64,000 bases of DNA from an uncultured archaeon (GTDB taxonomy: Archaea; Thermoproteota; Bathyarchaeia; Bathyarchaeales; Bathycorpusculaceae), in NCBI GenBank assembly GCA_963782915.1, contig CAWALK010000018.1:1994-65993 (forward strand). The letters are read 5' to 3'. This document shows positions 5,970-29,039 of this stretch, piece after piece. Under the pieces are notes generated by a model that saw only the letters and a program-made list of their open reading frames with translations, was not told the origin of the DNA and ran no database searches. Position 1 is the first letter of the stretch. Each line of letters starts with the position of its first letter. The position numbers were made by a program, and so were the translations under genes.

Positions 5970-7202
5970 TTTTCTGCGGTATGCTCCGCATCCTGCCCAG
6001 CTTCCTTTTCACGCTGGCAAAGGCATCTATAGTCAACGGGCTTGTCTCTGCGGAACTGGGTCGGGAAAGACAAAATGCGGGTTAGCTGAGGATATTCGTT
6101 GGGCGCTGGATTATCCTGGGAGCGTCGGCTTCATTTTTGAGCCATCTTACCCAATGATGAAGCGTATTCTATTCCCAACTTTGGAGAGCAAAGATTTCTT
6201 TGGTTGCCGTTATCCGTTTACGCAGAATCCCTATGTGGCGGACTTTAACCGTGGGGATATGCGGCTGGATTGGTTTAACGGTTCGCAGTGGTGGTTTGTC
6301 TCGCTGGATGATCCAGAAAAGGCCGAAGGTCCTAACGTCGATTATGCGCATATTGATGAGGCTCGGCTTGTTCGCCACTTCGATACTGCGTGGCTTACTG
6401 TTGTGCGTAGGCTTCGCAAAAGTGGCCGCTGCATGGTTCCAATTAACCCAGGCATTTGGCTTACAACAACGACCGATTCTCCTGGCAGCCCTTTGTATAA
6501 TATCACGGAGAACCCTGAGACGAATTCGCCTAATATGCGGATTTACCGTTGGAGCATCTTTGAGAACCCAACCTTGCCCAAAGAATTCTTGGCGGAAATT
6601 GTGCGAACCCACACCGGCGGCTTAGCTGACCGCTTTATCTACGGCAAATTTGCCACTGTCGCCGCGGGTAGCTTGCCCTTTGACTCTTCAAAGCATATTC
6701 GGGAGTTGACTGATAAGGCGTTGATTGATAGGGTTAGCTTTGGCGTTGACTTCGGTTGGAGTGCACCCTCGCGCTATTGTGGTGAACGCTTTTGACCCTG
6801 ACGGCAGAGCCTACGCAGTGGATGAGTTCTATAAACGGGAAACGACAGATGAAGAGTTAGCCGAGGCAGCCAAAGACTTGCAAGAGGAATGGGGTGAGGG
6901 AACGTTTTGGTGTGATGCCCGCTTTCCCCAGTCAATTTTGAAGCTTTGCCGTGCAGGTTTAGACGCTAAGCCCTATACTTTCAAACGTGAAGATGGGTTG
7001 CGGGAGCTTGGAAGCCGCCTAACTCCTGCGAGTGATGGGAAGCCCCGCCAGTTTGTAAGCAAACGTTGCGTTAACCTGATTAGTGAATTGTTGGAGTATC
7101 GGGAAGACGTCAAAGAAAACGACCATGCGACTGGATGCTTTGCGGTATAGTTTGCCACTTCAGTTAGAAGAGAAGCCGTTTTTGTATGTTGTTCGGCGCT
7201 AA
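5932..7202 (+). CDS. terL: Terminase large subunit (frameshifted)
   Basis: PHPAQ Q-motif, Walker A GTGSGKT, Walker B YAHIDEAR, nuclease GVDFGWS and ENDHATDALRY. Confidence 0.93.
7041..7202 (+). repeat. Terminase 3' end, copy A (repeated at 10935-11093)
   Basis: attagtgaattgttggagtatcg...gttcggcgc is present twice. Confidence 0.95.
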
Positions 7203-7217
7203 GGGACTGTCGCAAAC

Positions 7218-10200
7218 TCACTTGTAGGTCCATTTACCGATTATTTTTTGGGGAGGCAAACGCACTGTGAACGTTGTGCCATTTCCTTCTATGCTTTCAA
7301 AAGTTACTGTTCCGTTTAATGCTTCAGTCATGCGCTTAACCACTGCTAACCCTAAGCCTTGACCTTTAGATTTTGTCGTGAACAATGGAGTGAAAAGCTT
7401 CGGCTTAACTTTATCAGGGATGCCTATACCGGTATCTTGAACAGTGATGACTGTGTCTTCTGCATCCAGATGCGCCCTCATGGTTAGTTGGCCTCCATTT
7501 GGCATCGCTTGAACGGCGTTAGAAACCAGATTCCCAAGAATGCGCTTTAATATAATGCTGTCAACCACAATTGTTTTAACAGGTCGTCTCGATATTGCAC
7601 GAAGCCTTGATGTTTTTAGGCATGTCTTTTCCTTGGAGCAAATTCTGTACAAAGGCTTCCAAGTCAATTTTTTGAGTTGCAGGATTAATCGTCTTAGCGT
7701 AATCTTGAAGGTCAGCTACAATCTTGTTAATGTAATCAACGTTCTTTTCTATCTCTTGCAGGCTTTCTAATACACTCTTTTTTTCTTCACTATCGGGTGT
7801 TGAATCCAATTCTGTTTTAGCCAAGTAAATGTCGCTAGTGATAGCCTGTAGTGGATTGCGAATATCATGCCCAACCATTCCAGCCGTCTCACCTATGGCA
7901 GCCATTCGCTGAGCCCTCTCAAGTTTTTTCCTATCATCAATATCAACAAAGGACAAAACGGCGCCATCTATCCTGTCGTCTTGCGTTATGTAGGGTCGAA
8001 TTTGCATTTCAAAATAATGACCTTTCTCATCTTTTACTTCTCTGGTGAAATAGCTTAGTTTAGAAAATACTTCTGAAATTATTTCGCTCAAGTCGTCAAC
8101 TATAATGTTCAGTTTGATGGTCGTTATTGGTAATCCAACTGTTGCAGGTGACAGATTCAGAGTTTTCTGTGCTGAAGGCGAAAATAGCCTAATCTTTAGA
8201 CTCTTATCGATTATGACAATAGCTGGACCCACGTTCCTATTTATGTTGGTTAAGTCATCGTTCAGCTGAGAAAGCGTTTGGTTTCGGTTCTTCACCTCAT
8301 CATTCAACGTTTTCAATTCTTCATTGCTAGACTGAAGCTCTTCTTTAGCTGTTTCCAACTCTTCGTTTGTGCTCTGCAACTCCTCATTACTCGACTGCGC
8401 CTCCTCCATAGTGGTTCTAAGCTCTTCGTTGGTTGCTTCCTGAGTTTCAATAATCCTCTGCACAGTTTGTTTAGTTGACTCCAATTCTTCCCTGAGCTCT
8501 CTATTTTGGCGGTCCTTAAGGTTTTCTCGACCTTCAGGAGAAATATTTAATTCCATCGTTTGGCGTAAAAGCTTCGCAGCTGAACTTACATCTTCGAATA
8601 ATAGAAGGAAAAACGGTGCCTCATACCGTTCAACATGTATGGGAACAACTTGTATGTTAACTGTTCTCTGTTCTCCAGCATATTCAAACCGCACGGCATT
8701 CTCTTTGACAACTTTTTTCTCTTTTTTTGCCCTATAAATTATCGTTTCGACTTCAGACCTTAACTCTTTGCGAATAATTTTAGCAAGGTTCAAACTTGCT
8801 AATCCAGATTCGGGCAATACATATGATGCTATATTTCCTCGAAAAATTAGAACATCCAAATCAACATTAACTAGCAAGGCGGCAGGAACATACTCGGTGA
8901 CTAACAAACGGTCAACCTCGTCTTTCAACTCTGCAAGGACATCTTTTCTGTCGGCTGCTTTACCTTCTTTAGGTTTAAAATATGGCGTTGATGCTTCCAG
9001 ACCAAAAGTGATACGGGGCGGTGCGATCTTCTTCGTGTAGATTGCAGCCCTTTTTGCTTACAGATTCAAATAATTGAGTGAATTTTCCAATACTTTCAGA
9101 TTGCCCTAAGACCAAAAAGCCACCTATTTTTAAGGCGTAATGAAGAGTCGGCACTACTTTTTCGTGTAGTTGTTCGTCAAAGTAAATGAGCATGTTGCGG
9201 CAGCTGATAAGATCCATGTTAGAGAATGGTGGGTCTGCAGTTATGTCTTGCTTTAGCGAAAACACACATATCTCGAATATTTTTACAGATCTGATAATGT
9301 CCGTTGAAGCTTGTGAAGAAATGTTTTAGTCGTTTTTCGGGTAAGTCGGTTTCTATAGTTTTTAGGTATATTCCTCGTCTTGCTTTTTCAACGTTTCTTT
9401 CGTTCACGTCCGTGCCGAAAATTTGAACCTGAATATTTGTTATGGATTTTTCTTCGAGGAACTCTTGTAGTGCAATTGCGAAGGAGTAAGCTTCTTCACC
9501 TGTTGAGCACCCTGGAATCCAGACACGAATGGTTTCATTGGGCGGGCGGTTTTTCACTAATTCTGGAAACACCGTTTCTTTCAAAGCTGTGAATGTTTCA
9601 GGTTCTCTAAAAAAACTTGTCACTCCGATTAGCATATCGTTGTATAGTGCTTCCAGCTCGTTTGGATGCTTCAGCAGGTACTCTGCGTAATCAGCCATTT
9701 TTTTAATGTTGTTGATAACCATTCGACGTGCGATCCGCCGATTTACGACGGTTTCTTTGTAGTGTGAGAAATCCACCTTGAAACTACTTTTTAGCATAGT
9801 GAATATTGCTTTTAAGGGTGTTCCCAATTCTAGCTTTGCATCATTTGGTTCAGTATCTTCTCTTGACGCGATTTCGCTTCGTGCTAGTTGAGGGTTATAG
9901 CGATTTTTTGTAGTTGTAAGGCCATCTGGTCTGGAGATAGAACAAAATCTGCAGCTTCGGCTGTAATGGCACTTTGGGGCATGTCACCATACTGGGCAGA
10001 ATTTGGAGTTTGTGCGAAAGTGATGCCTCCTTGAGCTTTGATGGCTTTTAGACCTTCAGTTCCATCAGAGCCTGTTCCCGAAAGCACGATACCTATACTA
10101 TGATTTTTCGAGTCCTGGGCCAGGGAAGCAAAGAAAGCGTCAATTGGTTTAACCGAAGACGTACCCTTTGGGTGAAGGGTGAGTAACTTGTTTTCCATGG

Positions 10201-10552
10201 TCAAGATAGTTCCGGACGGAATCACGTAAATATGGTTTGGTTCAACTGGTATCTTATCTTTCACTGTTTGGACGTGCATTTTGGTTAATCTTGAAAGAAT
10301 GTCGGATAGCATGCTTTCTTGGCCAGCCGCAAGATGCTGGATAACAACAAAAGACAAGCCGGTATCTGTTGGTAAATATTCTAGCAGACTTTTGAATGCA
10401 TCTAAGCCGCCGGCTGAGGCACCAATTCCAACTATGGGAATACCTTGTTTGTCTTGGTCAGAAGATTTCTTATTAGAACGCTTGGCTGCTTTTTTTTGGT
10501 TTTCGGGAATTTCGTTCCCCCCCCCCACAAAAGAATTGAAAGATGCCATCAA
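7218..10552 (-). CDS. CheB-CheR-PAS-histidine kinase fusion, copy 1 (frameshifted)
   Basis: CheB GASAGG/QH/SGTGSDG; CheR WIPGCSTGEEAYS, DLISCRNMLIYFD; EELQSTNEEL coiled coil; PAS; H-box GHDIRNPL; HATPase NLVSNAVQA, DTGIG, TTKSKGQGLGL. Confidence 0.9.
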
Positions 10553-10856
10553 GATACTCCAGATGAACAGTGGATATAGTGATGTACTGGCTACTGCATA
10601 AAAGGTTTATGCGTACGGTAAAGTAGTTATTTTTTCTCTGTTTCGCCCCAAATATCTATCGCAAAGCTGGTTAGTGCCCAATGCCATCCTCGCTTCTCCG
10701 CTATCTGTTCTTCGAATTGCTTTTCTAAGCGTTTGTTCATTCTAAGGATTCTACGGCTTATCTGGGGCGAGTGACTTTAAAACGCTCAAGCTCAGCCCAT
10801 ATATCTTTTGGGCAACAGACCTGGAGAGGCTGCCACATAGGGGATTCGCACATAGG

Positions 10857-10940
10857 CTATATGTTAATTCTTATAAACTGACTTGATGATAGGGCTATTT
10901 TGTGTAGGCAGCTCTGGGGAAAGCGGTAAGCTTTAACCTC
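10857..10940 (+). repeat. Truncated copy of the head-operon promoter/leader (full copy 11933-12018 and beyond)
   Basis: ctatatgttaattcttataa...gatagggctattttgtgtaggcagctctggggaaagcggtaagct is present twice. Confidence 0.95.
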
Positions 10941-11093
10941 GTTAGTTCTAGTAAACGCTATGTTAATGTAATTAGTGAATTGTTGGAGTATCGAGAAGAT
11001 GTTAAGGAAAACGACCATGCGACCGATGCTTTGCGGTATAGTTTACCGCTTCAGTTAGAAGAGAAGCCGTTTTTGTATGTAGTTCGGCGCTGA
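10935..11093 (+). pseudogene. Orphan terminase C-terminal fragment, copy A'
   Basis: Encodes ISELLEYREDVKENDHATDALRYSLPLQLEEKPFLYVVRR*; no start codon or upstream ORF. Confidence 0.9.
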
Positions 11094-11340
11094 GGCATAA
11101 GTTGCCCTAGTGATTTTGCTTATTGCCTGTTTTACCTTTTAGAGCCTTATAAAGAGCTTCGAGCTTTCTTCAAATCCTTTTGCCTCGGCACCTTACGCCG
11201 ATTCGGCAAAGAATGATTGGTTGAAATACCACTTGTATATAATTTAGCCACTAAACCCAAACTTTTTATGGTGCTAGAAACAATAGCAAAATGTCATATC
11301 TTTAAATAATATAATCCAGTTGAATTTCTGAGGTTTTTCT

Positions 11341-11607
11341 GTGCATAGAAATGAAGCTGTTGACTTGCTAAAAGAAATACTTGAAAACTGCATAAACATT
11401 ACACAATACGGCATCGCCATTATGCCACCTAACTCCAATGACGTAATGTCAAAAAATTTTCAAATACACGTATTTGGAAATGTTAACAAGCTTGATACCT
11501 CATGTTTAGAGTCCATTATGAAAAAGAGTTGCTTGCAACTAAAATTAATACAGGAAAAGAACCTACTTGTGATATATCGACCAATGAAACCTGAAAGCGA
11601 CTGTTAA
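11341..11607 (+). CDS. Small hypothetical protein, paralog of 11618-11845
   Basis: MHRNEAVDLLKEIL...LLVIYRP. Confidence 0.7.
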   Translation: MHRNEAVDLLKEILENCINITQYGIAIMPPNSNDVMSKNFQIHVFGNVNKLDTSCLESIMKKSCLQLKLIQEKNLLVIYRPMKPESDC

Positions 11608-11617: not shown

Positions 11618-11845
11618 TTAGACTAAAGCCTTCCTGTGAAAAATAACGATAGAGTCGCCTTCTTCCTTAACGTCCAAGTTACGCTTTTTGGCTACAGCCT
11701 TAATGAGTTGAGTATCTTTGGTTTTGATTCTAAGGATGGATAGTTTGGTTTCATCCTGTCGCTCAATAGAAACAGAATCCGGCGAAAGGTTAATGTCTTC
11801 ACCCAAAAGTGCCTTTAGGTAATCTATCGCGTCGTTTCGGTTCAT
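11618..11845 (-). CDS. Small hypothetical protein, paralog of 11341-11607
   Basis: MNRNDAIDYLKALL...SIVIFHR. Confidence 0.7.
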   Translation of the reverse strand: MNRNDAIDYLKALLGEDINLSPDSVSIERQDETKLSILRIKTKDTQLIKAVAKKRNLDVKEEGDSIVIFHRKALV

Positions 11846-11933
11846 TAATACCTAATTTAAGTATGCTTGTCTGTTCATTTAAGACTTGTTATGAGCACCA
11901 ATTTGAAAATTTTTGTTTTAGCCCAGCGTTGAC

Positions 11934-11951
11934 TATATGTTAATTCTTATA
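11934..11951 (+). promoter_or_regulatory. Putative viral late promoter of the head operon (TATATGTTAA-ttc-TTATA)
   Basis: Motif shared with 3332, 10858 and 20589. Confidence 0.65.
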
Positions 11952-11986
11952 AGGCTGATTGTGAGTGATAGGGCTATTTTGTGTAG

Positions 11987-12072
11987 GCAGCTCTGGGGAA
12001 AGCGGTAAGCTTGACCTCTCCCCGGGGCTGCGGGCTTGCCTTTTCCCCATGGGTTGACCGAAATTTCGGGTC
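11987..12072 (+). other. Structured 5' leader of the head operon
   Basis: 13-bp stem GCAGCUCUGGGGA/UCCCCGGGGCUGC (2 G-U pairs) enclosing an AAGC-GGUAA-GCUU hairpin; second hairpin at 12056-12072. Confidence 0.5.
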
Positions 12073-12081: not shown

Positions 12082-12945
12082 TTGAGTGAAGGTTTGGGCT
12101 GTGGGAAATGCAAGCGAGTTCATGAGCAGATAGCTCAGATTCTGCCTTTTCGGGTGCTGGAAGCCGCTGAGGGTAAGCCATTGCGGATTGCAGGCGTTGC
12201 TATGACTGCGGGCATGTCCCGTAACCACAACGTTTACACTTCTGAAGAGTTGGAGGCTTTTGCTCCTAAACTTGTCGGGGCACCCATCTATCTTGAGCAT
12301 GTCACCGTTGAATCAGCCATTGGAAAAGTTACTAACTGCGTTTTTGATGCCCAATCCAAGAGCTTGCGGTATGAAGCGGAGATTTACGACCCAACTATGG
12401 CTGAGAAGATCCGTCAGGGTTTGATTCAGCATGTGAGTGTTGGGGCAGACTACGATGCACTTGATACAGCCAACGTGCCGCATGGGTTGCATAACGCGGA
12501 GATGTCGCTTGTTGCAGTGCCCGGTATTCCCGAAACCAACATCCAAGTTTTAGAGGCTTTACGACAGAAGGGGGTTGGGGGTTTGGAAGAAAAAGACATT
12601 GAAAGTGTCGCTGAGAAAGTCGCTGCTAAGATCGGCGAGAAAAATTCCCTTGAAATTGAGGGTCTGAAAACAAAGCTTTCGGAAGCGGAAGGTAAGTTGG
12701 CGGCTTCTGAGGGTAAACTTGCCGAAGCCAACAGGACAGTTGAGCAGCTAAAGCAGCTTGTACCCGGTGTGGACTTGCTGAAGAATCCGCCTAAACTGAT
12801 GCCTGTCTCTGAAGCTGTCAAGATGGTTAAGGAAGCACTGCCTGCGCCAATGATTCAGCGTTCATGGGGACTTGGCCCTCAACGCATGTGTCAGGACCTG
12901 CAGCGTGTCGTCCAGAAACTTGAGACTAGGGCTGGTGGCAAGTAA
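12082..12945 (+). CDS. Prohead maturation protease with scaffold-like coiled-coil C-terminus
   Basis: GVAM...SRNHNVY...PIYLEH...HVSVG...EMSLVAVPGIP; coiled coil follows. Confidence 0.85.
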   Translation: MSEGLGCGKCKRVHEQIAQILPFRVLEAAEGKPLRIAGVAMTAGMSRNHNVYTSEELEAFAPKLVGAPIYLEHVTVESAIGKVTNCVFDAQSKSLRYEAEIYDPTMAEKIRQGLIQHVSVGADYDALDTANVPHGLHNAEMSLVAVPGIPETNIQVLEALRQKGVGGLEEKDIESVAEKVAAKIGEKNSLEIEGLKTKLSEAEGKLAASEGKLAEANRTVEQLKQLVPGVDLLKNPPKLMPVSEAVKMVKEALPAPMIQRSWGLGPQRMCQDLQRVVQKLETRAGGK

Positions 12946-13158
12946 ATGGCTGAGAAATCTGCCGAGGGAAAACTCCACGAAGTCGATGACACAGAAGCTG
13001 ACGCCGTTATCGAGTTTGCAAGCAGGGCAATTCCTCATAACGAGATGCTTGGCCGTGTTGTCCGCAATATGTACAAGCGGATTCAGCAGTTAGAAGCCCA
13101 AGTTAAGGACCTGCAAGCGAAGCCCAAAAAGGCTGCCGCTAAAGTTGGAGGTCCATAA
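12946..13158 (+). CDS. Small head-module hypothetical protein
   Basis: Abuts the protease stop codon; coiled-coil C-terminus. Confidence 0.55.
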   Translation: MAEKSAEGKLHEVDDTEADAVIEFASRAIPHNEMLGRVVRNMYKRIQQLEAQVKDLQAKPKKAAAKVGGP

Positions 13159-13236
13159 GTTTTGCTCACTTTTGTGGGGCTAGTAGCGCCAGGACGAACT
13201 GGTGTGAACGCAGAAACAATAGGGAGATTGATTTAG

Positions 13237-13662
13237 ATGACTGATTTAACTGGAAAATCTTGGATGGCTATAGGCGAAACTGACGATCCAAACGCTGTTA
13301 TAGAATCTTTTGAAGCGGCTGCAGGCATCACCAAAGGCTCACCGGTTTACTTGAGTGCAGACGATAAGGTTTCCGCCAGCCCAGGCGGAGACAACGCAAT
13401 AGGAATTGCAGTGAAAACCGTTTTGACTGGTCAACAGTGCCCAGTGCTAACCCGTGGGAGAGTCAAAGTGACGGCTGGCGGCGCTATAGCAAGAGGTACA
13501 GCGGTTTGCAGTGCTGCTGCTGGCAAAGTGATTCAACTTGTCGATCAAGCTGTTGACGAGGGCGGCGCTGCGAAATACACAATTTTCTTCAACCGCAAAC
13601 TTGGCTATGCACTAGAGACTGCTGCGCAAGATACCGACCTGCTGTTTATTGAGGTGGGATAA
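13237..13662 (+). CDS. Capsid cement/decoration protein (DUF2190-like)
   Basis: AAAGITKGSPV...AIGIA...VLTRGRVKVTAGGAIARG; directly upstream of the capsid gene. Confidence 0.75.
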   Translation: MTDLTGKSWMAIGETDDPNAVIESFEAAAGITKGSPVYLSADDKVSASPGGDNAIGIAVKTVLTGQQCPVLTRGRVKVTAGGAIARGTAVCSAAAGKVIQLVDQAVDEGGAAKYTIFFNRKLGYALETAAQDTDLLFIEVG

Positions 13663-14615
13663 TGAAGCCCAAACTCTACGAGTCATTGATGCAGAAAGAC
13701 GCTGGATTCAAAGAAGTCATGGAAAAACTCAAGCTGAAAACTGACCATCCATTCCTAAAGCGCTATGCGCTTATGGGTGTGAAGGAAGGCTTTTTCAGCG
13801 ACATGTCAGGCGCTCTTGGCAGAATGCATGATACGATGGTTGATGCTGCATGGCCTGAATTGATTGGCCGTAGCATAATCAACGTAATGCCAACCAACGA
13901 AGCCATGGAACGCTTCCCAATCGATGCAGGCGCAATTGCTTACGAATACGCTGAAGGCACTATTACCCGGCTCTCAGGCAAAAAAGCCTCAACTGTTGAC
14001 ATCAACGCAAACATTCTGGCAGACTCTTCAGATGAGTGGACAAGGGAATACCTTGAAGACGCATCTTGGAACGTCATGGACCGTGCAACACAGAACATCG
14101 GCAACGCTTTAGGAGTTAAAGAAACCGAGAAGATTCTGGCACTATACACTGCTGTTTTAGCTGCTGACTTAGCTACTGGCGCAGACCTTGCAGGCGGCGG
14201 TACTGTGATGAGTTGGACAAAACTGCTTAGCTTGTGGCATGCTGTTAAGTCTGAGAAGCGAAGAGCAACTGTTATCGCCCTAAACGATATGCAGGTTGCA
14301 CAACTCCTCAACGATAGCACTTTCACAAACGCACAGTCTTTACCCTCAGCACAAACCGACCTCGAAGCCGGCGTTGTCAGTGGCGCTTTGGGCATGAAGA
14401 TTGTTTCAAGCCCACTTGTCACCAACGGTGTTGCATTCGCCATCGATACACGTGTTGCCTCCGCGATGCTTCTGCGCCGAGACGTAACTGTCGAGGACTG
14501 GGAAGATGTCAAGAACGGCAAATACGGTGTCAGAGCCACAACTCGCTTCGGCTTAGGCGTCCTAGATTCCAAAGGCATTGCAAGAATGACAAACATCAAG
14601 ACGACAATCACTTAA
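13662..14615 (+). CDS. HK97-fold major capsid protein
   Basis: Size, position and C-terminal LLRRDVTVEDWEDVKNGKYGVRATTRFGLGVL pattern. Confidence 0.88.
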   Translation: MKPKLYESLMQKDAGFKEVMEKLKLKTDHPFLKRYALMGVKEGFFSDMSGALGRMHDTMVDAAWPELIGRSIINVMPTNEAMERFPIDAGAIAYEYAEGTITRLSGKKASTVDINANILADSSDEWTREYLEDASWNVMDRATQNIGNALGVKETEKILALYTAVLAADLATGADLAGGGTVMSWTKLLSLWHAVKSEKRRATVIALNDMQVAQLLNDSTFTNAQSLPSAQTDLEAGVVSGALGMKIVSSPLVTNGVAFAIDTRVASAMLLRRDVTVEDWEDVKNGKYGVRATTRFGLGVLDSKGIARMTNIKTTIT

Positions 14616-14631
14616 GCGGTGCATTCGCCCG

Positions 14632-14649
14632 TTTTTCTTCCCCTTTTTT
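14632..14649 (+). terminator. Possible oligo-T terminator after the capsid gene
   Basis: tttttcttcccctttttt pyrimidine tract shortly after the stop codon. Confidence 0.35.
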
Positions 14650-14680
14650 GGGTTATCAAATCATATCGGGGTCTAAGCAT

Positions 14681-16018
14681 ATGAGTAGCGTTTACAGAAA
14701 AATCCGTGAGGTCCTCTCCTATGCGCCTGTTTCAGGCGTGGCAAAGCCAAATGGCAGAGTGTTCTTTGATACTTCCTGCATTCCCCTAATTGATGTTATG
14801 AAGCTCTATGAGCGTGACCCAACCTGCAAGGCAAGCGTGGATCTGTTGGCTGCCTCCACAGTTGGCATGGGCTTCTACACTACCGTGGACGAAAACTATG
14901 ATAAGGCTAAAGAAGCCAAAGCCGCCGTGGATAATTTCTGCGAAGACATCAACTTGGACGGCTTGCTAAACGATATGGCTAAGCCGCTGATTGGCTGCGG
15001 AAACGATTTTTGGCTTAAATTAACTCCTGACAAACTAACCGAAACCTTGCGCATGCCCATAGATGCAGTGCAACGCATCGGGCTCAGTAGTGTTCCCAAT
15101 CTATAGCTTACCCTACAAAGTCACAGGTTATCAACTCAAGAACATTCCTATCGCGGGCAAAGCTCGAGAAATGAGCTTAAACCTGAAGCGGTCATTCACT
15201 GGCGCCTTAACGGCGATATTCCCTCTGGCTACGGCGTTGGCTTGCTGCAGGTGCTTTTGCACACGTTAACCGTTGATTCGGATAAGCGTCCGGCTGTTGC
15301 TTGGATGAAAGCCAAAATCGAGCGCATAATGCCCAAGATTTTTGAGAAGTATGCGGGACCTGACGTTTTGGCGATGTTGGAGGGCGTCGATGAGGCAACG
15401 GTGAAGTCGTTTGAGCAGGCCATCAAGAATCGGGATGAAGAGGGCGCTTGGCTATTCTACAACAAAAAAATCGATTTAAAGCCTGTCACGATTGACCCCC
15501 GAGCACAGGGCTTTGTTTACTACATCGACCACATCATTAATCAGTTCTATTTGGGCTTGGAAACGCCTCTGCCACGGCTTTTTAGCACTCCAGGCTTTAC
15601 CGAAGCATCGGCAAGGGCAGCGTTGGACTTGCAGGATATGCTCATAAAACCCGTCCAACGCTACATCAAACGTCAAGTAGAACGGGAACTTTTCTCGCCT
15701 ATTGTTGCTCAAGCTGGACTTGATTCGATTAAGGCTAAGGTGCGGTTGAATTATGGCAGCCCCGAAACTCCAGAACTTAACTCTGCTGACCTCATCAAAG
15801 CCGCTGAAACTGGGTTGATTCGAGCAGAGGAGTTCCGTAAGAACGCTATCAAGTTTGGCTGGGAACTCTGGGAACAGAAGCCTACCGCGGCGACAGGGCA
15901 ACAGCAGACGGTTAGTCTTGAGGGTTTGCATGGAAGAAAAGGCGCAGGCAAGTATCTTGTGGTGGATTTAGGGAAGAATGAGGAGTCTGCTAAAGTTGAG
16001 TCTACTGGGAATAGTTAA
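14681..16018 (+). CDS. Portal protein (frameshifted)
   Basis: LYERDPTCKASVDLLA...GMG; HWRL...GYGVG; LGLETP...EASARA...IKPVQRYIKRQVE. Confidence 0.8.
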
Positions 16019-16307
16019 GGCTGTAGCTGCTGTACAGTTGGTTGGTGAAGCAAAAAGCCGTATTCCGGTTGGGTTGCAAGGTTTAACTTTCTATAGCCAA
16101 AGGGATGAATGGGTTTTTTTGTCGAGTGGTCACCCCAATATGTGCGCTGATTGCGCAGACTGTGATGGTAATGTTTTTTTGGGAACGGAATTGCGTAGTG
16201 CTTTTCCATATCACACAATTTTGGACGAGAATATTATTGCTGCTTCTGTTCATCCTAATTGCTCGTGTTTGCTATTGAGGGCTTTTTCTGCGGGACGTTA
16301 CATGTAG
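15978..16307 (+). CDS. Small MuF/SPP1 gp7-like minor head protein
   Basis: HPNMCADC...HPNCSC motifs; follows the portal gene. Confidence 0.55.
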   Translation: MRSLLKLSLLGIVKAVAAVQLVGEAKSRIPVGLQGLTFYSQRDEWVFLSSGHPNMCADCADCDGNVFLGTELRSAFPYHTILDENIIAASVHPNCSCLLLRAFSAGRYM

Positions 16308-16454
16308 TTACCCTTCAGCAATTCCCCTGCTGAGAGTTGTTCTTGCTGCGGAGCTGTTCTTAAGAAGGATGCGACAGTTTGTGAGAAATGTTAACAACAG
16401 CTAGATTCAGCTAATGATTGGTTTGGAGGACAATAAGACGTATCTTTTTTTGGC

Positions 16455-16500
16455 GAGTTTGGGCTGGGAATTGTGGGACGACAAAGCACACTCAAAATAA
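16455..16500 (+). pseudogene. Orphan portal C-terminal remnant
   Basis: gagtttgg(g)ctgggaattgtgggac...taa reads EFGWELWDDKAHSK* after removing one G; compare portal KFGWELWEQK at 15851-15880. Confidence 0.6.
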
Positions 16501-16517: not shown

Positions 16518-19500
16518 TTACCGTTTAGCTCTTGGGGGGAAACGTAAAATGAATTTTGTGCCTTTGCCTATTTCGCTCTCGAAAGTTATTTTGCCGCCTA
16601 ATGCCTCAGTCATGCGCTTGACCACTGCTAAGCCAAAGCCTTGACCCTTCGATTTAGTAGTGAAAAGCGGAGTGAATAGTTTTGGCCTAATTTCTTGTGG
16701 GATACCAACACCTGTATCCTGAACAGTTATGACAATATCGCCAGCATCCTTGACCGCATGAATATCAAGTTTTCCACCCTGCGGCATAGCCTGAACTGCA
16801 TTACTTACCAGATTACTTAAAATTCGCTTCAACATAGCTGGGTCAGCAATCGCCTTTTTCGCTTCTTTCTCGACTATGCATGAAGCGTCAATGTTTTTTG
16901 GAATACCATTATTAAGCAGCACTTCTTGGCAGAGCGCTTCAACATCTGTTTCCTGAACGGTTGGCTTGAGTGGCTTTACAAAGTCTTGTAGGTCTTGAAC
17001 AATCTTGTTAATGTACTCAACATTCTTCTCAATGCCTGCTAAACTTTCTTTCATGCCCTCTTTTGCTTCGCCTTCAGGCATCGAAGCTAAGTCAGTCTTA
17101 GCCAAATATACATCACTGGCAATTGCTTGCAAGGGATTACGAATATCATGCCCAACCATACCTGCAGTCGCGCCAATAGCTGCTAAACGCTCGGAGTCTT
17201 TGAGTTGACTTGGTTCGTTCTTCAACAAGCTTCTCCAAGTTCTTAGCATATTTATCAAGTGCCTCTTCAGCTTTTTTGCGTTTGGTAATATCTGTGAAGG
17301 ATAAGAATGCCCCGTCAATTTTCTTGTCTTCAGTTAGGTACGGTCGAATCCGCATTTCATAGAAATGGCCATCCAAACCCTCAACTTCTTGACTAACAGG
17401 AGTTAACTTATCGATTACCTCCGTTATCATCTTATCCAAGTCTTGAATATGAACTCCTGGAGTTATGTTGGCGATGGAGCCCCCAACATCGGATGGCGAA
17501 ATTCTCAAAAGTTCTTGGGCTGCAGCAGTGAAACGCCTTATCCTCAGGCCACTATCAACGATAACCACTGCGATGTCAATGTTGGTTTGCAGATTTGCTA
17601 AGTCATCATTTAGGCGACCAAGAGTCTGATTGCGGTTCTTAAGCTCCTCATTTAAAGTCTGCAGCTCCTCGTTGCTTGACTGCAACTCCTCTTTAGCTGT
17701 TTCGAGCTCTTCATTTGTGCTCTGCAACTCTTCATTGCTCGACTGAACCTCTTCCATAGACGACCGCAACTCCTCATTGGTTGCTTCCTGCCCCTCAACA
17801 AGCGTCTGCAAAGACTGCTTAGTTGCCTCCAAATCCTCCCTAAGCTCACGAATCTGACGATCCTTAAGACTCTCTACCTCGCACAGGCGAAACTGGAGCT
17901 TCAACTTCGTTGTCTTGAATGCAGATCATTTGAACGGTGTTTCGGTAAACAATACAAGGTAGAAAGGTTCGTCGTATTTCGGTGTTTCTAATGGTCTTAT
18001 CTCTATGCTAACTGTTTTTGGTTGCCCTTTTTGTTTAAGCGCACCGTTTCTTTGAAGGCTTTCTTTTCTTTCTTTGCTCTATAAATGGCAGTCTGAATTT
18101 GTGACCTCAATTCTTTTCGAATAATCTTTGTTACGTTAAAACTCGCCGCTCCTGATTCAGGTATAAGATAAGGAGCAACATCTCCACGAAAAACCAGTAT
18201 ATCCAAGTTATTGTTTACCAACAAAGTCGCTGGACCATACTCTGAGGTTATAAGATGGTCAACTTTATCCCCTAAAACAGTCAGCAGATCTGCTTTTTCA
18301 ATGCGGTTTAACTGATCTTCTTCGTAGCAGTGGAATAAAGGCTTCATTAAACAACATGTTGTGGCTGGGCTTGCTTCTTTCTGTAAATTAAGCCTTTTGT
18401 AGTAATTGGTTCAAACAAGTATTGGAATTTGCCAACACTTTCAGATTCTCCCAAAACTAGAAAACCATTGGGTTTTAATCCGTAATGGAAAATTGGCAAT
18501 ACTCTTTCGTGAAGATACGAGGTCAAAATAGATGAGAACATTTCGGCACATGATGAGATCTAAGTTAGAGAAAGGCGGATCGCTTGTTATGTCCTGCTTT
18601 GCAAATATGCACATGTCCCGGATGAGTTTTGTGATTTGGTAATTTCCGTTTTGCCTATTGAAAAAACGTTTTAGTCTATTTTCGGAAACGTATGTCTTCG
18701 ATAGTTTTTGGATATATTCCTTGACGAGCTTTCTCAATATTCTTTTCATTCGCATCCGTACCAAAAATTTGAACCCGTATCTCAGGCATGACTTTTTCTT
18801 CTAGGAATTCTTGAATTGCAATGGCTAAAGAATAGACTTCTTCGCCTGTTGAGCACCCCGGAACCCAAACACGGATGGATTCATCGGGTGACCTGTTTTT
18901 GATAAGTTCAGGAAAAACTTTTTCCTTCAAAGCCTCAAAAGTTTTTGGTTCTCTAAAGAAACTTGTCACGCCTATTAGCAGATCATCAAACAAGGCCTGA
19001 GGCTCATTTGGGTGGGTCCTGCAGATACTCGATGTATCCTTTCATGTTTTTGGTCTTATTTATGACCATGCGACGTGTAATGCGTCGGTTTATGGTTGTT
19101 TCTTTGTAGTGCGTAAAATCTACCCCGAAAGAAGTTTTTAGCATCATTATAATTTTTTTCAAGTCAGATTCTACTTTTTCTGGTTTGGTGTTTTTGTTTC
19201 AGAAGGAATGAGTTGAGGGTGATGGGCGATTCTCACTAGTTCTTTTGCTATCTGTTCTGGGGAAAGGATAAAATCGGGGTTTTCGGCATGCTATGGCGTT
19301 TTGGGCATGTCGGGGTATTGCGCTGTCTCTGGGTCTTGTGCGAAGGTTATTCCGCCTTCAGCTTTAATTGCTTTTAATCCTTCGGTTCCGTCATTGCCAG
19401 TTCCTGACATGACGATTCCAATTGCTTGGGTTTTTAGTTCCGAAGCTATGGAAATCATAAAGTCGTTGATGGGTTTAAGAGCTAAACCTTTGGGAACAAG

Positions 19501-19833
19501 CTTTAGGCAACCGTTCTTCAGCGTCATTGTTGTTCCTGGAGTGATGACGTAAACGTGGTTTTTTTCAACTTTCATGCCATCTGTTACTTGGAGAACCTTC
19601 ATTTTGGTTGACCGTGAAAGGATTTCGGGCAGCATGCTTTCTTGTCCAGTAGCTAGATGCTGGATAACAACAAATGACATACCCGTATCAACGGGCAAGT
19701 TCTCTAGCAGTTTCCTGATGGGGTCTAATCCGCCTGCAGAAGCGCCAATCCCAACAATCGGAAACTCATACGCTTTACCTTTGCCTTCAAGGGAAGCAGA
19801 TTCATCGAAAGTAGTTTTTATTTTGCTTGCCAT
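16518..19833 (-). CDS. CheB-CheR-PAS-histidine kinase fusion, copy 2 (frameshifted)
   Basis: Same domain order and motifs as copy 1 (GASAGG, GCSTGEE, EELQSTNEEL, GHDIRNPL) but clearly divergent in sequence. Confidence 0.9.
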
Positions 19834-20314: not shown

Positions 20315-20588
20315 AGAAATTGCCAACTTAAAATATGGCCATTTAACATACAAAAATGTTTGCGCGAACAGAAAACAGTTAGCGCCCAATGCCAGCACGC
20401 TTCTATGCCATATGCGCGCCAGTCTCTTTTTCCAAGCGCTTATTCATCGAAAGAAGTCCTTGGGGCTAAAGTCTAAAAAGGGGAAAATAGTATAAAAGAC
20501 GTCGCCTAGCTGCGGTTCCCTATTAGACTTGAACTATCGGCCTATTAATACAAGAAAGAAGAGTTTAGTTGTTCTTCGATTTTTTGCT

Positions 20589-20606
20589 TATATGTTAAGT
20601 CTTTTA
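20589..20606 (+). promoter_or_regulatory. Putative viral late promoter of the neck/tail operon (TATATGTTAA-gtc-TTTTA)
   Basis: Shared motif, 63 nt before the connector gene. Confidence 0.6.
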
Positions 20607-20651
20607 TGCGGTTCATTCCGTAACTTCAAATTCATTGAGGTTTAGTTTGCT

Positions 20652-21008: not shown

Positions 21009-22634
21009 ATGGGCACGGTTCCAGATGCCTACTTTCAGTTTGTGATGCACTATGCGCCCTACTACTACGTTGTTCCCACTAACTTGGCTGCGGATGCGGC
21101 TGCTGGGCAGAAAAACGTAACTGTTGCGGACGGTTCGAAGTTTCAAGCTGATTTTCCCGTTGAAATCAAGGATTCCGCCCATAGCGAATGGAGCGAAGTT
21201 GAAAGCGTTCTTGGCAACGTTGTAACCCTCAAGAACAATCTAGCCAACAGCTACTTTATTGCAAAGGCTGGGTTGATGGAGGGTCCTGACCCTGCGTTTG
21301 GTCGTGGCACTTTTGCCGCTGCTTTCGCCATCGAGTTTCTCTGTGAAGCCTACTCGGCCCCTCAATTCTCAAGCCAACAAAGCAGACATACTCGCCAAAA
21401 TTGTGGAGTTAGCCGATTGGCTGCTGACACAGCAATGCATCGACCCTGCGAGGACTGCGTATGGCGGCTTCAAAAGCGGGGAGTCATCGACTGACTATTG
21501 GAGTATTGATGCTGGCAGGGCTATTCCTGCATTGCTGAAGGCTTACGCCGTGACGTCAACGGCTGCCTACTTGGACGCGGCTAAGTTGGCGGGCTACCCT
21601 TTCCTGTACAACATGCAGCGTCTACCCGTGGTTTTGGGTTTGCATGACCGCTACTATGGCGGCTTTGCTTCCTACGTTACCATCGGTGACGGCTGGGAGG
21701 CGTCGATGTATGTCGAGAACCTCTATTGCCTCATAGGCTTAAAGATGCTCGCCGACACCTACGATACCGCCAACGCTCCAACCTACAACAGCGGTGATGA
21801 GTGATGCGGTTGCTTTCCTTCGGGACGGTTTGGAGGGGCTTTGGCTCTATTTCTATCCGTTGCCCTCTGGGGATGGCGCTTGGCACCGGGTCGGCTTGAA
21901 TAACACCGAGGTTTATGATGACCCGATAAGCTTCGCCCTGCTTGGCTTGTACACTTATGAGGGTTGGACGGCTAGTTGCCAACGTGTCTATAACGCCGTG
22001 CAGAGCATCAAGGCAAGCGGCCAGTATCCCGCCTATGTTCCTGATGTCTGCTGGCCTGGCTACATAGACGTGGTTTCAAGGTTTCCCGCCTGCAGCTACT
22101 ATGACGGCGTCACGATTGGGATTCTTTGGAAAATCCGCAAAGACCGCGACCCTCCAGGCTACAAGTTAGCCCACGACATCGCTGAGAAGTACGCTGATGA
22201 ATTCATGGATTGGGGACCAATCTTCACCGACTATAGCCCAATTACGCCTGCCAAAGCTATGGCGAACGTAAGCTGGATCGCCCGAATGTTTCTCAACTAC
22301 ACGGAACCATCAACGCAATTCACTAAAGATACTCAAAAGCAAGGGTGAAGCGGTTCTGCTTTATCCAGTGCGGCAAGCTGTGGAAACCGTTGATTACGGC
22401 GACCCTCTTGAATTGCTCGCCGTGGTTTCTCAGCTTAAAGCTGAACAGGTTCTCATAGAGCCCGGGTACTACACAAATGACTATTTGGCGTTCTACACGT
22501 TTCTGCCCGTGCGCAGTCACGACAAGATAAGGCGTCAAGGCGAGGACTACGAGGTGCAGACTGTGTCGCCTTTTGCTTTTGCTAATCAGCGGCTCTACTT
22601 CAAGAGCACGGCAAGGAGGCTGCTTACCAGTTGA
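21009..22634 (+). CDS. (alpha/alpha)-toroid glycosidase-like domain probably fused to a C-terminal head-closure domain (frameshifted)
   Basis: LADWLLTQQ...YGGF...IDAGRAIPALLKAY helical repeats; removing one A near 22330 joins QFTKILKSKGEAVLL...DKIRRQGEDYEVQTV. Confidence 0.55.
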
Positions 22635-24518: not shown

Positions 24519-24527
24519 GGTGAGAAA

Positions 24528-25204: not shown

Positions 25205-25558
25205 CATTTGACGTTCAAGGCGTGGACGAATTCGTTGCGGCAATGCAACGCCTAGATAGCGGCTATGCAGGAGAGAGTCCGCGCTTGGCTCTACGATTGG
25301 GCACAGCGAGTAGTTGATGAAGCCAAACGTAACGCTCCTGTACGCACGGGCTATCTTCAAAGCAAAATCTACGCCATGGCTCAAGAATGGGTCGTGGAAA
25401 TTGGGGCAGGGGCAGCCTACAGCTACTTTGTTGAGTTCGGGACCCGCTACATGTCAGCCCACCCGTTCCTTTACCCTGCAGTGCAAGCGTTTCTCCCAGA
25501 GCTAGAAACTAACATTATCGGTGCTATTGAGCAGGCAAAAGCGGAGGCTGGATTGTGA
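25189..25558 (+). CDS. HK97 gp10-like tail-completion protein (frameshifted)
   Basis: AKRNAPVRTGYLQSKI...YFVEFGTRYMSAHPFLYPA. Confidence 0.85.
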
Positions 25559-26097: not shown

Positions 26098-28497
26098 ATG
26101 TCCACCGCTGCCCCAAGTATCGCCCTAGTTTTTGGCGCTGTAGCCCCTCCGCAAGCTGATGTCGTTGAGCTTCTGGTGCATTTGGGCTGTAGCAAAGAAG
26201 TCAGCAGCTACGACATTACCCTGCATAACCATAACGGCAAGTACAGCCCAAACGGAGCAACACCCATAACCGTGGGCATGGACGGCTCAATTAGCTTAGG
26301 GCGAACACCAAACTGTCCTCTGCTTATGACGCTTGCGGGTTGAAAAAGTCCATTACCAAAGCTCGCCTACTGAAAGCTACTTGACTGTTTCTGGGCGTTG
26401 CTGGGGCGAGCGGCTGTTCCGCCGAGTAGTCACGGCAACCTATTCGGGCATGAAGGGCGAGGAAATTGTTAAGGACCTGATGGATTACTATGCGGGTCTC
26501 AGCCATGTACGTGGAAGCACAGAGCTTGTTGAAACCACAGACACAACCTATACGGAATTGGAATACGAGGACTCGCCCGTCTGGGACATCCTCAAGTACG
26601 TTGCCGAATCCGCCGATAAATCAGGCGTCATAGGCTTTGATTTTCGGGTTTCCCCTGACGGCAAATTCGAGTTTTTCCCCAAGCTCTCCAAAACAAACTC
26701 AACCGTAATCACCGAGAACATCGACACCACAGCAGAGTATGAAAAAGAAATCACCAGGATAAGAAACAAAGTTACTGTTTACGGCTTAGCGGACAAGAGC
26801 AGGCCAGCGGATAAGGTTTCTTGGACTCGCCAGCCTCACGCCTACGGATGGCACTTGGACGGCAAGCGCTGGATCCGTAAGCGTTGACGCTACAGGAGCA
26901 CCGGACGGCGGCGCATGCATCAAACTCTATGCGCCCAGCAACTATTTTGGCAGCGCAAACTTCACCCTAAACGCTGGGTCATCTCCTCAACTGTGAGCAG
27001 TATCCCATCTTGGCGTTGATGCTGAAGGCAGAGGCGGCTTTCGGCGGAACTGGCAACTCTAACGCTCTATGATAACACTTACAAGGTGGCAGCCAAAGAA
27101 GTCTCGATTTCTCCAGACGCAGCTTGGCATGGCATTGAAACGGGTGTAGGCTCAGCCTACGCTAACCAATGGAACTCTGTTCAGATCAGGGTTTGACTGG
27201 ACGCAAATCCTCTGTGTTCGCATTACTCTTTGGTATCCTGGAACGGTTGGGACGGGTAGCTTCTGGATTCATCAACTCTACATCGGGGGACGCCGATACT
27301 CTGGACTCTCTCAGGATACGGCAAGCCAAGCAGCTTATGGCCTGCGGGAATATGTTGAGGTTGATGAGGAACTTTGGAGCGATGGCGAATGTAACCGCCG
27401 CTCAGCTGCACTTTTGGCGTATCTCAAAGACCCAGCCGAACACCTGCACATAGTTAGCACCGTTTTGGATTATGGGACGTCGCCGATTAAGGCAGGCGAT
27501 AAAGTGCACGTGGAGCTTCCAACTGAGGGCGTCAACAGTGACTTTAGGGTTGAAAGCATCGAGTATCGTGTGCCAAAAGAGGACCCCACAAAGCTCGAAT
27601 TAACATTGGAGCTGGGCAAGGAACCTCCGCAACTAGCCGATTATCTCTATGGTTTGCGTACCCACACGCCTAACGTTGAGAAACTTAGCAGAACAAAGCT
27701 TGGCAAACGAGGCGTTCCTGTGGCTTCTGGCGGCGGAGGCGGGGGTAGCAGTGGCAGCTACTTTAACAGTAACGCGGAAATCGACAAAGCATCTCCCTGC
27801 CTAAACCTGATGACGTCTCGAACGCTGAAAGCAGCGTTTGGGCATGACGGCGCCAACACTTTTCTAGTCTCTTACGCAGGGGACTTAATCGCCTATTCAG
27901 CAAACCATCTTATCCGCCCAATTACAGACGGAAGCGATGACTTGGGCAACGGATCTTTCCGTTTTGGCTCAGCTTACCTCAAAAATAACCTCTATGTTGG
28001 CAGGCTGGGAAGTTGTCGCCAACACGGGCAGAATCAACATGTGGTCAATGCCTCGTGATACCTCGGGTTTGGTTCTGGAAGCTCAAGGCGTAAGTAACTA
28101 TCCGACGTATGTTGACCCCAACGGCAGATACGCCCCCGCATCTCATAATCACGCTAACATGTACCCTGCGGGAGGCAACAACACCGGGGCATGCGGGGAC
28201 ACATCGACTTATTGGCATGTGGTTGCAGGCGATAGCGTTTGGTACAATGCGCTCGGACACATGGACATGATAGATGACATAGCCGCAATCAAAAAAATCA
28301 AGTGTAGCGAGAAGACCGATAAACACGGCGTGCCGTTAATTGACATTAATTCTTTGCCTGAAGAAGTGCGCAGTGAGGAAGGCATGCTTCACGCGGGTCA
28401 TCTAATGGGTTTAGCGTTCGGTGCTATAAAGCAATTGACTGCCAAAGTTGAGGCATTGGAAAAAGAGTTAGCGAAAACGCAAGGCACTAATTCGTAA
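26098..28497 (+). CDS. Baseplate hub fused to tail spike with C-terminal intramolecular-chaperone-like domain (several frameshifts)
   Basis: gpD/gp27-like GRCWGERL...WDILKYVAE...FDFRV...IRNKVTVYG; Gly linker; C-terminal SLPEEV...GAIKQLTAKVEALE coiled coil; single-gene reading is inferred. Confidence 0.6.
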
Positions 28498-28526
28498 TTT
28501 AAAAACTGATATTTTATTCCCTCATT

Positions 28527-28838
28527 CTACTCCGGTTCGATAGTTGCAGAGATATCAAAGTGTATCCGCTCTAAGTCGCGCTCTGTGAGTAAGTCCACTT
28601 GGGTACGTTCAGTGATTGCTTGTTCTGCCATATCCATGAGGAGGCATTCGCAGATTACGCAACGGTAGATGCCTTTTAACGGATCTCGAAATAACTCGGT
28701 TTTTGCTGGAACCATAACGGCATCGTCCTTATCCGTGGCTAATAGGGGTATTGAAGGGCTTAGTTTTTCTATGAGGGTTTTTACTTCTTGTTCGGTTCTA
28801 TGGCATATCCAGCATCGTTTTTCTTTATTCATCGGCAA
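28527..28838 (-). CDS. Zinc-finger hypothetical protein (cargo)
   Basis: CWIC...CVIC Cys pairs. Confidence 0.6.
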   Translation of the reverse strand: MPMNKEKRCWICHRTEQEVKTLIEKLSPSIPLLATDKDDAVMVPAKTELFRDPLKGIYRCVICECLLMDMAEQAITERTQVDLLTERDLERIHFDISATIEPE

Positions 28839-28900
28839 TTCACTAAACCCATTATTTTTGATTTTCTTTATTTCTTTTTCGGAACTAAGGGTGCTATAGT

Positions 28901-29039
28901 TTGCCTGAGGAGATGCTTTCTAAATCTGGGCTTGGTTCATGGTGGGCATGTTTTGGGTTTAGCTCTTAGCGCAATTACGCAACTGAACGCAAAAGTCGAG
29001 GCATTAGAAAAACAACAAGAGAAAATGCGCTCATCCTGA
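28901..29039 (+). pseudogene. Orphan remnant of the tail-spike C-terminus
   Basis: LPEEMLSKSG/LVHGGHVLGLALSAITQLNAKVEALEKQ* versus native LPEEVRSEEGMLHAGHLMGLAFGAIKQLTAKVEALEKE (28354-28497). Confidence 0.8.

Follow-up and report, generated by a model that had tools for sequence, protein, structure and literature searches.

In the Rhs, contact-dependent inhibition (CDI), and type VI secretion system (T6SS) loci of bacteria, a new 3′ gene part that arrives with a new partner gene displaces the old pair downstream, and arrays of displaced pairs build up (PMC5361080, PMC3150448). The displacement has been treated by Poole 2011 (PMC3150448), Kirchberger 2017 (PMC5361080), and Jackson 2009 (as cited in PMC5361080). 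The route put forward for these loci is homology-facilitated illegitimate recombination; clean homologous replacement is described as commoner and orphans as rarer, and a parallel with integrons is drawn and then rejected for want of an integrase (PMC5361080, PMC3150448). Here we describe a related arrangement in a tailed provirus of an uncultured archaeon (Bathyarchaeia; Bathycorpusculaceae). The provirus lies in a 64,000-nt stretch of contig CAWALK010000018.1 (GenBank assembly GCA_963782915.1), and this whole stretch is called the window throughout. Three core genes of the provirus, which encode the large terminase (TerL), a probable portal, and a tail spike, are each followed by accessory genes (cargo) and then by an orphan second copy of their own 3′ end. 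The original prediction, made from the letters of the window, held that the gaps behind these genes are exchangeable slots, in which incoming modules from sister viruses use the 3′ end of the upstream gene as a homology arm and push the old end and its cargo downstream.

Phage morons are extra late-operon genes that lie between core genes, are often antisense and of deviant composition, are absent from close relatives, and have their junctions at gene boundaries. Hendrix and colleagues reportedly attributed morons and the mosaicism of phages to illegitimate recombination. Integrons work by ordered, site-specific, and repeated insertion. In phages 21 and e14 at the 3′ end of icd, and in many islands at tRNA genes, an end borne by the element restores the gene and the old end comes to lie at the far side; these elements use a tyrosine integrase and a defined core. 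In T4-type phages, the promoter/terminator cassettes known as PeSL elements are repeated promoter-bearing segments that flank accessory open reading frames (ORFs) in plastic regions, an integrase-free process for which mini-circles were demonstrated and which the authors compared with integrons (PMC2839356, PMC4122927). A term search of two papers on Bathyarchaeia viruses (PMC10848311, PMC11697101) found no mention of the displaced-end pattern.

Results

Repeated gene ends at the terminase, tail-spike, and portal slots

Relatives of the provirus were collected through a capsid-protein search, which gave 28 loci in Bathyarchaeia metagenome-assembled genomes (MAGs) and 29 in IMG/VR. Feature coordinates are collected in Table 1. 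The 3′ end of the TerL gene is present twice in the window, once attached to the gene and once as an orphan behind the first cargo gene. The two copies (7058-7204 and 10950-11095) align over 147 nt at 88.4% identity and with a single 1-nt indel (E 1.7e-50 within the slot), and none of 200 shuffles attains this score. The duplication had been predicted correctly; the predicted starts at 7041 and 10935 lie ∼15 nt outside the solid homology. No start codon gives the orphan an ORF of 50 aa or more. The attached and orphan ends differ at 14 positions in 46 codons, which fall 1/1/12 on the first, second, and third codon positions and change two amino acids. A tree of eleven TerL ends (144 nt) places most of this change on the branch of the orphan, although the change is synonymous. 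The codon-position bias shows that the orphan has a coding history, and it appears to have been part of a working terminase in another virus until recently.

The order of the slot is TerL end, kinase gene, and R(a), followed by the TerL orphan, cargo B, R(b), and the protease gene, where R(a) and R(b) are copies of a promoter-like segment that are identical over 47 + 20 nt. The map is thus that of two allelic segments [TerL3′-cargo-R] in tandem. R precedes the protease gene in the relatives L001, L002, L029, and L056, and at the junction of R(a) with the TerL orphan the joined sequences have at most ∼5 nt in common, which is what an illegitimate join would produce. A 20-mer of TATA-like sequence (CTATATGTTAATTCTTATAA and a variant) occurs at 10857-10876, 11933-11952, and 20588-20607. 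It sits before the protease gene and before the first gene after the portal slot, and therefore the slots are framed on the right by a shared promoter-like motif. On contig C19 of the same genome, a kinase gene, its upstream sequence, R, and the protease leader follow one another directly with no orphan among them, which is the single-cassette state of this arrangement.

At the tail-spike slot, the attached and orphan ends (28381-28480 and 28929-29028) are 71% identical over 100 nt (E 1.2e-10, attained by 0 of 200 shuffles), and the peptides that they encode match at E ∼3e-9 in a search against the whole genome. The spike gene is 90 to 95% identical to those of the sister proviruses L058 and L059 up to ∼28243-28250 and ∼65% identical beyond; by this break the attached end is foreign to its own gene body. 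The orphan is 78.5% identical to the attached end of L059 and closes with the same ...EKMRSS-stop, as compared to 68% between the attached end of the window and that of L059. The Zn-ribbon-like ORF and the orphan spike end recur together, 86% identical, in L062, a second provirus from another MAG, where they stand behind a different spike end. This recurrence suggests that the two are inherited as a unit.

The repeat at the portal slot is shorter. As DNA it extends over 23 nt at 87% identity (E 0.034) and is matched by 3 of 200 shuffles, which is marginal alone. Its C-terminal motif, searched for as GW[ED][LIVM]W in six frames of the 57 related loci and of contig C11 (∼1.1 Mb), occurs only at portal C-termini, where it always precedes a short tail and a stop, and at the orphan site. 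On this pattern we accept 16452-16500 as a putative short remnant of a portal end. The homology of the window to L002, L029, and C11 ends at 15873-15895, directly after GWELW. L001 has the same slot with a degenerate orphan copy between flanks that are 97 to 100% identical, and the Cys-rich ORF between the attached and orphan ends is the newer cargo of the slot. As a separate observation, the portal orphan differs between the window and L001 (12785-12830) at ∼13 positions, next to 450 preceding nt that are 97 to 100% identical; this patch of change is possibly due to gene conversion from the attached portal end.

The portal gene itself is a probable assignment, weakly supported by sequence comparison. 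It is a single ORF of 443 aa in L001 and of 415 aa in L002, and its distant relatives give weak matches to Phage_portal and Portal_Mu. Sequence and profile searches of PDB, Pfam, and PHROGs with the window gene gave no match, and its AlphaFold model (pLDDT 38) is too poor to confirm the identity. Among its distant relatives (P0128, P0086), a LAGLIDADG domain is inserted in one and a Mu-F domain is fused to the C-terminus of the other, two features often met with in portal genes.

Each copy of a repeated end is followed by different cargo. Behind the attached and orphan TerL ends lie the kinase gene of cargo A and the small ORFs of cargo B, respectively, and behind the attached and orphan portal ends the Cys-rich ORF and the kinase gene of cargo C; the attached spike end is followed by the Zn-ribbon-like ORF. 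Several parts of the original prediction are borne out by these results. The 3′ ends of three core genes are duplicated, solidly as DNA for TerL and the spike and, for the portal, as a short remnant accepted on its motif. The terminase, portal, and spike orphans all keep a stop codon of their own with different cargo after it, the codon-position pattern of the TerL ends (1/1/12) agrees with orphans that are alleles of sister viruses, and the unit in L062 together with the different cargo after every copy indicates that a displaced end travels with its old cargo.

Cargo turnover among related viruses

The gaps behind the portal and TerL genes vary in length and content among the relatives, as was proposed for exchangeable slots, and the cargo turns over at these particular places. 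From the portal to the next gene, the gap is 14 to 40 nt in 5 loci (L005, L008, L020, L030, L041), ∼210 to 430 nt in 14, and 0.6 to 5.3 kb in 22. The large gaps hold unrelated cargo, namely GmrSD, a STAND NTPase, Kelch repeats, deacetylase-like and HFX_2341-like genes, and CheBR-kinases in either orientation. Between TerL and the protease gene, only 5 nt separate the TerL stop from R in L056, a 38.5-kb virus genome rated complete; in L066 and L068 the protease gene follows the TerL stop after 160 to 190 nt. Longer gaps are present in L001 (1.2 kb), in L002 (2.2 kb, with a different kinase), and in the window (4.9 kb). Based on these comparisons, the gaps are genuine hot spots of cargo exchange. 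The outcome named in advance as refuting the original prediction, a lack of cargo turnover at the slots in related proviruses, did not occur, and the idea of slots stands.

Genes of the defense type are present in the portal and TerL slots of relatives, such as a GmrSD restriction enzyme (L029:6983-8674), a STAND NTPase (L049:10416-12830), and PIN/MazE pairs (L097:1353-4372), and these two slots look like defense hot spots of archaeal viruses.

The cargo in the window differs from the core genes in composition, with a GC content of 0.38 to 0.44 in the three gaps as compared to 0.49 to 0.53 in the virion and core genes. Cargo A (GC 0.40 to 0.44) is missing from the same slot in L001, L002, and L056. 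Paralogs of the first cargo B ORF adjoin kinase genes elsewhere in the genome, and an exact look-up of a cargo B protein in other assemblies returned no record. Cargo C is common to L001 at 93% identity, and a response-regulator gene adjoins the kinase gene there. The kinase gene ends within ∼15 nt of a gene-end stop at both of its sites, that of the attached TerL for cargo A and that of the orphan portal end for cargo C. Every cargo ORF, together with the genes that flank the TerL slot in L001, was scanned with Pfam, and this revealed no integrase, transposase, or recombinase domain, with the limit that the whole provirus was not scanned exhaustively; cargo that is a mobile element with its own recombinase was rejected as a candidate on these scans.

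CheB-CheR-PAS-histidine kinase genes recur in viruses of this clade, in either slot and in either orientation (the window, L001:12908-17079, L002:6395-8116 and 12982-16059, and L028:1-1245), and host kinase paralogs are located at C19:126360-129044.

Orphan ends and related scars in other elements

The same pattern recurs independently in other assemblies and in other elements. One example is a provirus remnant on contig C20 of the same genome, in which three TerL ends of ∼311, 156, and 52 nt stand in a row with different cargo after each. This cargo comprises a nitroreductase-like ORF, with the similarity judged by eye, and two paralogous secreted proteins; the remnant adjoins an IS4-like transposase gene and the host genes for ribosomal protein L15 and SecY. 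In L097, a JGI contig, the TerL end is followed by 3.6 kb of PIN and MazE-type pairs and then by a 192-nt orphan end at 76.6% identity, and the differences between these two ends fall 13/9/30 on the three codon positions. The TerL orphans measure 192, ∼147, ∼147, and 52 nt.

The scars extend beyond TerL and beyond 3′ ends. In the sister provirus on contig C11, a duplication of the 3′ end of a GNAT-type gene (394 nt, 92.6% identity) brackets an antisense gene for a 439-aa ATPase. L006 presents the mirror image: an orphan R with the first 50 protease codons precedes the real gene by 4.4 kb, and metabolic cargo occupies the space between them. Duplicated R-type segments flank cargo in L006, L016, L041, and L010; neither the portal slot, the spike slot, nor C20 has them. 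Given the orphan 5′ ends and the duplicated promoter segments, the process is not restricted to 3′ ends. Fragments of the TerL 5′ part in L105 and L106 were set aside as unrelated remnants.

Such scars are the exception, and most cargo swaps leave none. Orphans were found in 3 of ∼22 TerL loci and in one lineage among the 22 portal-slot loci with at least 0.6 kb of cargo; no orphan was present in ∼20 other TerL loci or in any other cargo-bearing portal slot examined.

Provirus setting and assembly quality

The window assembly is noisy. Approximately one spurious 1-nt insertion per 0.5 to 1 kb is scattered across it, mostly outside homopolymers, and splits viral and host genes. Nearly all the differences from the sister proviruses that break these genes are 1-nt insertions that are found only in the window and lie outside homopolymers. 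The genes for TerL, the portal, a 540-aa neck protein, and both kinases occupy several frames here and are single ORFs in L001 and L002; TerL, for example, is a single 444-aa ORF in L001, L002, and L056. Two window-only insertions in TerL, at 6769 and 7132, are most likely assembly errors, and the second of these, an additional G that disrupts the attached TerL end, is missing from 10 of 10 other copies. Further stretches with splitting insertions are exemplified by 14648-16018 and 21009-22634, next to 5815-7202 in TerL and 53900-57300 in host DNA. For this last stretch, three relatives encode intact proteins of 820 and 315 aa, which in the window are broken into 4 and 2 pieces. Because host genes are broken to the same degree, the frameshifts in the window are assembly noise. 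Decay of the provirus was rejected on the same grounds, and it should be noted that pseudogenes cannot be called from this particular assembly.

At least three further related elements are present in the same genome, on C11, C20, and C19. An att-type repeat of the neighboring tRNA-Lys was sought at the right end of the provirus and none was found; in an Rfam search of positions 1 to 34000, a tRNA was the only known RNA family matched. Directly behind the orphan spike end lies a 69-nt piece that resembles the 3′ end of a gene on C11, and the window homolog of that GNAT-type gene is located at the opposite end of the provirus (∼4600-5400). This piece may mark an old circular-permutation or tandem-provirus junction.

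Table 1. Positions of the provirus, its repeated gene ends, and its cargo (window positions unless a contig is named)
Feature	Position	Strand	Remarks
Window	C18:1994-65993		Part of a 3.28-Mb genome in 25 contigs
tRNA-Lys	1763-1840		
Tailed provirus	∼3.3 kb to ∼29 kb		
Large terminase gene TerL	5815-7202	+	PHROG phrog_2 (E 2.3e-22), Pfam Terminase_6N; three frames here
Attached ('native') TerL 3′ end, repeated part	7058-7204	+	Holds the DHATDALRY nuclease motif; stop TAA
Cargo A, CheB-CheR-PAS-HisKA-HATPase fusion gene	7218-10552	-	Pfam domains; split by frameshifts here
R(a), copy of promoter-like segment	10857-10933	+	Near-identical to 11933-12012; directly abuts the TerL orphan (novel junction)
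Orphan TerL 3′ end	10935-11093 (solid homology from 10950)	+	Intact frame ...KRYVNVISELLEYREDVKENDHATDALRYSLPLQLEEKPFLYVVRR-stop; own TGA 11091-11093
Cargo B, first small ORF	11341-11607	+	No Pfam family
Cargo B, second small ORF	11618-11845	-	No Pfam family
R(b), promoter-like segment	11933-12012	+	Normal place ahead of the protease gene
Head protease gene	12082-12945		PHROG 7015
Cement protein gene	13237-13659		
HK97-type capsid protein gene	13662-14612		
Probable portal gene	14648-16018	+	C-terminal GWELW motif at 15857-15871, then a 45-aa tail
Cys-rich 109-aa ORF	15978-16307	+	Between attached and orphan portal ends; also in L001, partly in L056
Putative orphan portal end	∼16452-16500	+	Reads (E)F-GWELWDDKAHSK-stop; ∼45 nt
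Cargo C, second CheB-CheR-PAS-kinase gene	16518-19833	-	68-75% identical to cargo A
Connector and tail genes	Downstream of the probable portal, as far as the tail spike ending at 28497		
Tail-spike gene, C-terminal part	27937-28497	+	Repeated attached end 28354-28497
Zn-ribbon-like 103-aa cargo ORF	28527-28838	-	CxxC ... CxxC
Orphan tail-spike end	28901-29039	+	...GLVHGGHVLGLALSAITQLNAKVEALEKQQEKMRSS-stop; own TGA 29037-29039
Fragment like the 3′ end of the C11 ABC-ATPase/GNAT-type gene	29049-29117	+	82-90% identity to C11:146488-146537 and 148759-148827
Provirus remnant on C20	C20:259047-264087		TerL 3′ part (truncated) and two more TerL-end orphans; three cargo genes; protease-leader stub
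Provirus on C11	C11:134250-149000		Collinear with the window provirus, 55-75% protein identity, no cargo after the portal

Discussion

The explanation that we consider probable is recombination out of register between sister viruses, either by a homologous crossover combined with an illegitimate join or by a single unequal illegitimate crossover. The three gaps after the terminase, probable portal, and tail-spike genes would be hot spots at which related tailed viruses of Bathyarchaeia hold differing accessory genes. Most exchanges would be clean replacements through homologous recombination in the conserved sequences that frame a gap. On the left these are the final codons of the core gene that precedes it, and on the right the promoter-like segment. 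Occasionally, two sister genomes with different cargo would recombine out of register. One crossover would fall within the conserved gene end or slightly upstream of it, and the other would be an illegitimate join between sequences with little or no homology. Such a recombinant would have a complete core gene with the last codons and the cargo of one parent, then the displaced end and the cargo of the other, so that cargo is added and not replaced. We infer in which order the events took place, which type of crossover was involved, and that the partners are proviruses resident in the same cell. Partners are at hand, since at least three further related elements lie elsewhere in this genome, and recombination with resident prophages is documented for temperate phages (PMC3945230).

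Three routes lead to the same map: a homologous crossover plus an illegitimate join, one unequal illegitimate crossover, and re-insertion of an excised circle. The first of these, homology-facilitated illegitimate recombination, is in effect the route of the original prediction. Under a crossover plus a join, the core gene should show a breakpoint immediately ahead of the repeat, and because of this prediction the observed breakpoints appear to favor that route. In the spike gene, identity to the relatives breaks at ∼28250, and over the last 200 nt of TerL the identity to L001 falls from 96% to 89% as that to L066 rises from 86% to 94%. It should be noted, however, that the core genes are mosaic in general. 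A single unequal crossover would leave an identical map, and the homology arm stays a putative mechanism.

Several observations weigh against out-of-register recombination as we picture it. As stated above, the three routes leave an identical map. The assembly is error-prone, and the TerL junction itself is known from this assembly alone. In the tree of TerL ends, the window orphan is no closer than the attached copy to the ends of the sister proviruses. Finally, one and the same codon is the start of the TerL orphans in the window and in C20, and both have K-R-Y-V-N, a sequence found in none of the attached copies, 11 of 11 of which have K-R-C-V-N. These features may point to a junction common to the two orphans or to a site at which breaks are favored, and neither would be expected if illegitimate joins were random.

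This last point bears on the idea that repeats recombine with each other and release a circle of cargo plus one repeat, which then enters a sister genome by a single homologous crossover, a process that would need no integrase and would be integron-like. We regard such circle traffic as rather unlikely, although several details speak for it. The succession TerL3′-cargoA-R / TerL3′-cargoB-R is the exact map of a Campbell-type insertion of a circle [TerL3′-cargo-R], R(a) and R(b) are identical over 47 + 20 nt, duplicated R-type segments surround cargo in L016, L041, L010, and L006, and PeSL mini-circles have been documented experimentally (PMC2839356). Moreover, the left boundary and the Y codon are common to the window and C20 orphans, which are not closely related over the rest of their sequence; this would fit a junction inherited from a circle and a remainder derived from the recipient. 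Set against this, the C20 junctions are without R, most cargo-bearing relatives have no repeats at all, and the first duplication still requires an illegitimate event. A bolder form of the idea is that displaced ends and duplicated promoter segments are working parts, for landing and for excision, of a cassette exchange that perpetuates itself and passes defense and sensory genes between co-resident archaeal proviruses as small circles without a dedicated recombinase, and that the shared K-R-Y left junction of the TerL orphans descends from such a circle. We offer this form as speculation and think it decidedly unlikely.

The remaining explanations have less in their favor. Two co-occurring strains with different cargo at one slot could have been stitched in tandem by the assembler; the genome is noisy with indels (the broken host genes of 820 and 315 aa are an example), several related proviruses and strains co-occur in the MAGs of the same project, and the TerL junction is unique to this assembly. 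A tandem join, however, needs reads that run from R into the TerL 3′ end, two sequences without similarity, and copies that are 71 to 88% identical are too diverged to confuse an assembler. The same architecture is also present in independent assemblies from other groups and methods, namely L097 (JGI), L006 (with a MEGAHIT-style contig name), L001, and L062 (another MAG), and an artifact is accordingly quite improbable. Site-specific insertion, in which a mobile element targets the 3′ end of a core gene and supplies a replacement end, would give the same map of gene, new end, element, and old end, and the common starting codon of two TerL orphans is in line with it. We judge it very improbable given that the cargo segments scanned are all devoid of integrase, transposase, and other recombinase domains, that the TerL orphans vary in length from 192 to 52 nt, that the cargo is unrelated between cases, and that mirror-image 5′ orphans exist. 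A local tandem duplication inside one genome, after which the spare copy diverged, would explain why the attached and orphan TerL ends of the window are mutually nearest in the 144-nt tree (support 0.91). An untranslated spare should change evenly by codon position, however, and 12 of the 14 differences are at third positions and mostly on the orphan branch; duplication in situ was rejected on this bias. With unrelated cargo after the two copies, and with a spike orphan that is closer to the attached end of another virus (L059) than to its neighbor, local duplication is hardly credible.

Taken together, the three slots provide a readable record of accessory-gene gain at fixed places in the tailed viruses of an abundant, uncultured archaeal class, and the gained cargo includes defense genes (GmrSD, STAND NTPases, toxin-antitoxin pairs) and whole sensory kinases. 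The slots are natural places to seek new archaeal defense and counter-defense genes, and orphan core-gene ends could serve as a simple computational marker of recent cargo gain in viral genomes. The displacement logic of bacterial toxin loci thus acts on essential virus genes too.

Among the known systems, the likeness to integrons is that new cargo joins at a fixed point with older cargo further downstream. The differences are that the scanned cargo has no IntI-type integrase, that neither attI nor attC sites came to light, although no attC model was run, that junctions vary by case, and that insertions are rare. With no sign of ordered, site-specific, and repeated insertion, the integron-like accretion of the original prediction holds as an analogy only. 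The integrase-independent part of that claim agrees with scanned cargo free of recombinase domains, and the integron likeness is the part not borne out. In the same vein, the elements at icd and tRNA genes differ from the slots described here, in whose scanned cargo segments no recombinase was found. The duplication of R(a) and R(b) around the TerL orphan and cargo B recalls the PeSL elements, with the differences that PeSL elements are short regulatory repeats and not gene ends and that R occurs at only two or three places in the provirus. The slots share with phage morons the position of cargo between core genes that are adjacent in relatives (the 5 nt from TerL stop to R in L056, the 14 to 40 nt behind the portal in five loci) and its lower GC content. 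We know of no description in the moron literature of systematic orphan core-gene ends as a scar, or of three in one genome.

The closest known match is the C-terminal displacement in the Rhs, CDI, and T6SS loci. There as here, a full-length gene is followed by 5′-truncated 3′ copies in the same orientation (TerL, portal, and spike in the window, the three ends of C20, and L097), and each displaced end keeps the downstream gene or genes with which it arrived. In the bacterial loci, the displaced part is a variable toxin tip with its immunity gene and is kept by selection for immunity. Here, unlike those loci, the displaced parts are the conserved ends of essential packaging and virion genes, the retained genes are unrelated accessory cargo (kinases, small ORFs, toxin-antitoxin pairs, a nitroreductase-like ORF), mirror-image 5′ orphans occur too, and the setting is a virus of archaea. 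Displacement itself is known in other forms from bacteria and phages; the distinguishing points are that the conserved ends of essential genes are displaced, at three genes in one virus, and in an archaeal host.

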